In this document: positions 26,086 to 26,830 of the stretch, one piece after another
How positions within the stretch are numbered: the stretch's first letter is position 1
Layout: each line of letters begins with the position of its first letter
NCBI GenBank assembly: GCA_964016885.1
Contig: OZ024742.1
Span: 154,442,001-154,506,000 of the forward strand
Direction of reading: 5' to 3'
Source of the DNA: Eledone cirrhosa
Taxonomy: Eukaryota
DNA: 64,000 nucleotides
The notes under the pieces: generated by a model
What the model was told of the DNA's origin: nothing
The model's database searches: none
Seen by the model: the letters and a program-made list of their open reading frames with translations, nothing else
Translations under genes and position numbers: made by a program

Positions 26086-26830
26086 TTAGAAAGTGAGGTT
26101 TTATTTACAAAATGAAAAATAACCGAGGTGTCCTACACGAGTGAATGTATAAAGAAAAAAAGATGAAATCGAAAATGCAACTGGAGTCTTATTTTTAAAT
26201 AAATATATATATTTATTTCGTTACTTTACCGGTTTCGCAGTTAAGCAGTGGTCAAAATGGACTCATCCCCTCGGGTTTCACAGCAGGTTCCACAGGTGCA
26301 GAGTCCGTCTGAGTGTTTCTCCGACCGGGCCTCTCTCGCAACGATATCCCTAACGTCGTACCTACCACTTTCTACTCGTTACTCGCAACGGTGGGGCTGT
26401 CTTCCGTCGCAAACGCCTCCATCGGGTGGACGACCGAGTGGCGAAGCTCTTTTACAGGGCTTTGCGGAGAACTTTTGCGCGTTGGTGACGGGGGCAGTGT
26501 CTCGAGCCTGGAGGTAGTCAGGTCAGCTTTGCGACTGCCTCTCAGGACCCTGGGAATAACTGGACTGCGGATCTGATCCTCTTCCTCATTGTCCTGTGCA
26601 GTGGTTGCAGGCGCTGACACTGACTGCTTCACCTGCATCTCGTCCTCTGCAGATTCCGATAACTCTGCTTCCCTAGCAACAGTTTCTGTAATGACTGCAG
26701 CGGCAATAGCAGCAGTTCTGCTCGGTATCTTCCTGAAAATGCCTAACTGCGAAACCGGTAAATGAACCAAATAAATATATATTTATTTTTAAAAATAAGA
26801 CTCCAGTTGCATTTTCGATTGCATCTTTTC
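26086..26830. mobile_element. Family E inverted termini enclosing a 500-bp GC-richer insert (26244-26743)
   Basis: Arms match those of 38037-38400. Confidence 0.85.

Follow-up and report, generated by a model that had tools for sequence, protein, structure and literature searches.

Within the 64,000-nucleotide stretch of Eledone cirrhosa DNA that we analyzed, referred to here as the window, two inverted arms of one repeat family enclose a sequence of different origin. The long arm (26086-26242, minus strand, 157 nt) was identified by alignment as the 3' end of a Penelope-like element (PLE) with a tail of ~60 nt. The short arm (26745-26829, plus strand, 85 nt) is the 3' end of the same element, also PLE-derived but inverted and tail-less, and it runs into (CT)n(TA)n. 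The left target flank (26062-26085) is (TA)n-rich, similar flanks are found at most family copies (30 loci), and with microsatellite on both sides a target-site duplication was unreadable. As a reference copy outside the insertion we used another head-to-head pair of this family, at 38037-38400, which lacks cargo and contains two complete U3-A8 minimal hammerhead motifs. A preliminary description of this DNA had matched both arms to that copy under the name family E, and alignment agreed: the left arm is 93% identical to 38037-38194 over 158 nt, the right arm is 88-91% identical to the same family, and the two focal arms are complementary at 91% over 90 nt. Both arms end at the identical element base, immediately before AACTGC-GAAACCGGTA. 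The common break point in the earlier account was thus correct, but its placement in hammerhead stem II was not, as the break falls within loop II and the predicted cut site is 16 nt 3' of it. Directly to the left of the focal element is an inverted pair of a different repeat (25519-26061; 71-nt arms, 402-nt gap).

Between the arms lies the cargo (26245-26741, minus strand), which alignment to its parent revealed to be a 497-nt decayed sense copy of part of a predicted host exon. The insert had been described as GC-richer than its background, and we measured 55.4% GC as compared with 34.4% for the whole window; none of 1,270 sliding 500-nt windows reaches 55.4%. A genome search with the insert returned two matches only, namely itself and G000:C24:18513088-18513579 on another chromosome, with 89% identity. 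The proposal that the insert came from a host exon or mRNA fragment, whose parent should be sought by genome search, was therefore borne out by one parent in a predicted exon, and the opposing possibility named at the time, an ordinary element interior or a sequence with no parent, failed, since the parent exists and the insert has no likeness to five long element copies. Searching with the whole exon returned the same two loci, and the next exon (exon 8) is single-copy. The parent sequence occupies a central part of predicted exon 7 (18512879-18514466, 1,588 nt) of a single-copy gene model spanning G000:C24:18490626-18519517 (L008, L009, L003, L004), whose nine exons, picked by eye, give a 2,176-codon open frame that may start further upstream, with AG acceptors throughout and eight GT donors. 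The predicted product is acidic and rich in E, S, T and D, with tandem peptide repeats of 12-aa, 10-aa and 22-23-aa units. Pfam searches on eight parent exon frames gave sub-threshold matches only and word-indexed searches with the parent protein gave no match; a full HMMER search found a single outside homologue, which shares 43% identity in the parent frame at E 7e-16.

The insert runs in the same sense as the tailed arm and falls entirely within predicted exon 7, crossing no exon border. It differs from the parent by 48 substitutions in 489 aligned nucleotides, one 6-nt indel and three 1-nt indels. Because the homologue follows the parent frame where the insert is shifted, the +1/-1 indel pair responsible arose in the insert. 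Accordingly, the minus-strand peptide with two stops reported earlier is present, but its 'SPVK' stretch is a product of the shifted frame. The third 1-nt indel, together with a TAG at 26372-26374, indicates that the copy is dead, and a selection test of insert versus parent was not significant (pN/pS 0.75, p=0.22). Present in one copy, the focal cargo is a dead pseudogene fragment that shows no sign of function, and its ~10% divergence from the parent argues indirectly against an assembly artefact.

What was named family E represents the 3' end, or pLTR, of an endonuclease-positive PLE. Across the 3.0-Gb genome, exact matches to an 18-nt core of the element number 15,002, as against none for a reversed control, and a GIY-YIG frame was reached by following a long family copy upstream. 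In the search for this frame 150 of 8,181 candidates were scored, and 20 loci chosen for long frames were then examined for open reading frames. A 775-aa ORF was present in 16 of these 20 selected loci (L153:3705-6029 and 15 others), with a C-terminal GIY-YIG domain above the Pfam cut-off and an RVT_1 match (E 1.3e-6) just below it. The ORF sits ~1.1 kb upstream of the hammerhead, and the intervening 3' UTR carries an internal duplication. Preceding the GIY-YIG domain is a CX4CXXC linker (CGRSNCGTC); a CX2-5CXXC linker is among the features described for Neptune and Nematis in the consulted portion of PMC8557442. The family has the Neptune features of linker and microsatellite (TA)n target, the linker being common to Nematis too, and its Neptune/Nematis-type likeness is one of linker and target. 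A pseudo-LTR arrangement, with a same-strand hammerhead upstream of the ORF, was seen in 7 of the 20 long loci, and inverted copies were common. Near-identical endonuclease domains across many intact 775-aa ORFs suggest that the family has probably been active recently.

Intact copies of the family are predicted to carry a minimal hammerhead, having the core boxes, helix I, helix II, a palindromic helix III and a U3-A8 core, and a motif scan recovered both arms of the 38-kb copy. The computed fold shows helices I and II, with a z score (-0.92) that is not significant. Since an Rfam scan of the window gave no hammerhead match at E<=1, we called the ribozyme from the anatomy of its motif and from the minimal U3-A8 hammerheads published for metazoan PLEs (PMC4209133, seen in part). 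The same motif scan detected no motif at 26 kb, where the focal arms are without the 5' box and the 5' strand of helix II; the long arm retains the 3' half only (CTGC-GAAA-CCGG-TA), without the UUGAAAA box. Elsewhere in the family, the 5' box has been removed by a recurrent internal deletion between two AACT repeats (L045, L047-L050, L062 and L063, on five chromosomes).

The window holds several other elements. At 2666-4821, inverted arms of another PLE family surround what is left of its RT and GIY-YIG, with a C3-G8 hammerhead motif near 2860 on the minus strand. A perfect 205-nt palindrome with a 1-nt centre occupies 12779-13189. By eye, from translations, we recognized a further PLE remnant with RT and GIY-YIG-like frames (14559-16232, minus strand) and a LINE remnant with AP-endonuclease and RT (17674-19063, plus strand). 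A 194-nt inverted pair at 37275-39059 itself encloses the 38037-38400 family copy along with other short hairpin repeats, an arrangement of insertions nested in (TA)n.

For comparison with the focal locus we collected 79 distinct head-to-head pairs, including the focal one, from all loci fetched, a non-random mixture of best matches, first matches on one chromosome and break-enriched patterns. The ~60-nt tail was on exactly one arm in 75 of the 79, the focal pair among them; of the informative pairs, 39 of 41 and 34 of 37 had subfamily marks common to both arms. Such anatomy is consistent with one source RNA having served as template for two cDNAs, one primed from each target strand. In vitro, a PLE protein has been described to cut and extend both strands and to use two RT starts a tail apart (excerpts of PMC11167929). 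Of 52 short pairs, 27 had inner ends <=3 nt apart, many of them at a single hot spot; in 15 it was the tailed arm that extended further, and in 10 the tail-less one. A simple fold-back of the tailed cDNA was rejected as the general mechanism of the family on account of these ten pairs, whose tail-less arm extends further 5'. As inner ends are often near-equal in cargo-free pairs, equal break points are ordinary, but a break at the focal base is rare: a pattern requiring three changed bases had 19 matches, two of which were the focal arms themselves. The survey of other family E pairs suggested in the preliminary description was carried out, and none of the 78 other sampled pairs contained unique joint cargo longer than 33 nt (95% upper bound 4.6%). 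Three of them hold longer (TA)n-bounded sequence, which we read as a nested repeat in L032 and as neighbouring insertions in L113 and L175. Searches with break-enriched patterns (19, 5, 20 and 15 matches) returned deletions, inversions and short fillers, and a second cargo was not found in them. Iterated short fillers at two pair joints (L157:5113-5146, 33 nt; L057:1472-1495, 23 nt) resemble repeated re-priming during sealing.

We then considered the focal junctions base by base. Written in element sense, the long-arm junction reads gene ...CCACTGC-TT-AACTGC and the short-arm junction ...AAAATG-CCT-AACTGC. The TT (26243-26244, minus strand) stands where the repeat units of the parent have CT in 8 of 11 cases and CA in 3 of 11. 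The CCT (26742-26744, plus strand) is absent from the element and from the parent at that end; with the preceding TG it forms TGCCT, as on the gene side of the other junction, where the parent repeat units have TGCC in 11 of 11 and TGCCT in 8 of 11. A five-base match of this kind is expected by chance about once in 1,000, was noticed post hoc, and presupposes that the long arm underwent one C>T change. Because the short arm repeats bases of the gene-element junction, it was likely made on a template already bearing that join and attached to the cargo through a 2-nt overlap. Arm-to-arm divergence (7/88) and insert-to-parent divergence (48/489) did not differ (p=0.70), which places the capture at about the same age as the insertion. 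The median arm-to-arm divergence in the family is 4.4% (54 pairs, a few counted twice), and the focal insertion appears to be older than most family pairs.

Several further readings of the junctions were discarded. Ribozyme cleavage does not account for the break, with the cut site 16 nt away, nor does splicing into the AG before it, the gene having no GT donor there; a rebuilt hammerhead at either junction failed on inspection of core covariation and helices. Three differences between insert and parent beside the junctions (within 26245-26262 and 26735-26741) bring the cargo ends closer to the lost TTTTGAAAA stretch of the element, through chance or ancestral likeness.

The explanation that we favor, with somewhat better than even confidence, is that reverse transcriptase jumped from a truncated element RNA to a host mRNA during a two-ended insertion. 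The endonuclease would cut both strands of the (TA)n target, and two cDNAs, with and without the tail, would be primed at two start sites on one source RNA whose 5' end lay within hammerhead loop II. The tailed cDNA would run off this end and resume on an mRNA fragment, jumping to its 3' end and copying ~500 nt, while the second strand would cross the same junction by a few bases, either on a common acceptor or by copying the first cDNA. The two strands would be joined at the 2-nt CA/TG overlap, and the captured copy would later have decayed without moving again. Template switching is described as a source of same-orientation LINE-1 chimeras (10.1101/2025.02.02.635956, in part). The preliminary description had likewise proposed a template-switch capture in a PLE-driven insertion; the PLE, the non-element insert and the sense parent exon stand, whereas the jump to an mRNA is what we infer from them. 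A distant, coding, sense donor favors RNA, as distant coding exons should make up a small share of a 3-Gb genome and a large share of mRNA. Sense orientation by itself is a 50% event, and the exon argument is weaker for a locus that was noticed for its coding-like cargo. The insert also falls within one exon and crosses no intron whose loss would mark an RNA template, and the mRNA jump is read from one event.

A one-exon insert is equally compatible with a DNA source. It is conceivable, though not probable, that a 500-nt filler was copied by RT or by a repair polymerase from the DNA or nascent transcript of a distant gene during sealing of the cDNA ends. Strand invasion usually requires microhomology, and the parent has none past the 3' junction. 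The donor, moreover, sits on another chromosome and is coding and sense, which the mRNA jump explains more readily. On the side of DNA, host genes flanked by PLEs can retain introns, as reported in the consulted text of PMC3846280.

The junction bases found in both arms would be accounted for most directly by a chimeric RNA formed beforehand, by ligation, splicing or read-through from an exonic insertion since lost, and retrotransposed from both starts. An AG of the element directly precedes the break, and RNA-level routes are known for LINE-1 chimeras (10.1101/2025.02.02.635956, in part). Nevertheless we consider this route unlikely: the gene side is without a GT donor, the join differs from the hammerhead cut site, and no family copy was present in 12 stretches (~119 kb) around the parent gene.

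Perfect palindromes are fragile, and two identical inner ends could start on one donor site if the pair had broken centrally after insertion, lost its inner ends and been patched with a piece of exon. This sequence of events seems very improbable to us, because symmetric inner ends are common in pairs without cargo, making a later break unnecessary, and cargo and arms appear equally old. That the insert is an ordinary transposon interior or part of a Pack-type DNA element is hardly credible: although a gene fragment between inverted ends resembles Pack elements, the insert has just two genomic matches and resembles none of the five long element copies, and the arms are unequal PLE 3' ends. The earlier label of a 'Pack-like' capture was consequently abandoned, there being no transposase terminal repeats, equal arms, multiple copies, or comparable cargo in any of the 78 other pairs.

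Returning to the mRNA jump, foreign cargo flags the joint of an inverted PLE insertion. The shared junction bases would also indicate order, the gene-element join preceding completion of the tail-less arm. A bolder generalization, which we regard as doubtful, is that the two reverse transcriptions of a PLE insertion, running on one RNA from both strands, can both jump onto one mRNA; the focal locus would preserve such a double jump, and inverted joints would be a general, unrecognized source of exon retro-fragments transcribed between self-complementary arms. If further cargoes prove to be sense and spliced, PLEs, like LINEs, form chimeric retrocopies, a point that would be of consequence wherever an invertebrate genome holds copies in the tens of thousands.

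Comparison with known systems, for which the cited sources were available in part, places the focal insertion among retroelement products. It has the one-sided tail, inverted truncated copy and (TA)n target of canonical PLE insertions, from a family encoding RT followed by CX4CXXC and GIY-YIG; unlike these, its tail is ~60 nt instead of 30-40, and its joint contains foreign cargo (PMC8557442, PMC11167929). The family shares with PLE minimal hammerheads the U3-A8 core, G10.1-C11.1, a palindromic helix III and opposite-strand pairs 100-700 bp apart (PMC4209133), but both focal motifs are without the 5' half and cannot form the core. Pack-MULE and Pack-TIR elements also hold a gene fragment between inverted ends (PMC8277862), whereas the focal locus is single-copy, of retroelement origin and without transposase terminal repeats. 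In LINE chimeras, both RNA/LINE-1 and the template-jump products of Magnaporthe, cellular sequence lies 5' of a truncated element 3' end in the same orientation, as here (10.1101/2025.02.02.635956, PMC2104539). The focal locus differs in its PLE machinery, its lack of poly(A) or a readable target-site duplication, and its extra inverted arm; its cargo is an internal exon piece, whereas those chimeras, in the portions of the two sources consulted, carry first exons or small RNA. By analogy, the focal insertion would work as a LINE chimeric retrocopy does and not as a Pack element. In the literature covered, which takes in few subscription papers, we found no account of an mRNA-derived exon piece at an inverted PLE joint. 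The closest relatives are the Penelope captures of Adineta vaga, where host DNA is held between pLTRs (PMC3846280). As in the focal insertion, pLTRs there enclose host sequence with no internal element sequence described and mobilization in trans. In the excerpts of that source, direct pLTRs flank an NRPS gene that is complete and contains introns, with a target-site duplication and Pen1 spacers, and solo pLTRs enclose non-coding captures, whereas the focal locus has a mid-exon coding piece between inverted, truncated arms and junction bases in both of them. Capture of host DNA between Penelope repeats was thus already known; what is new here is a donor that is distant, sense and coding.
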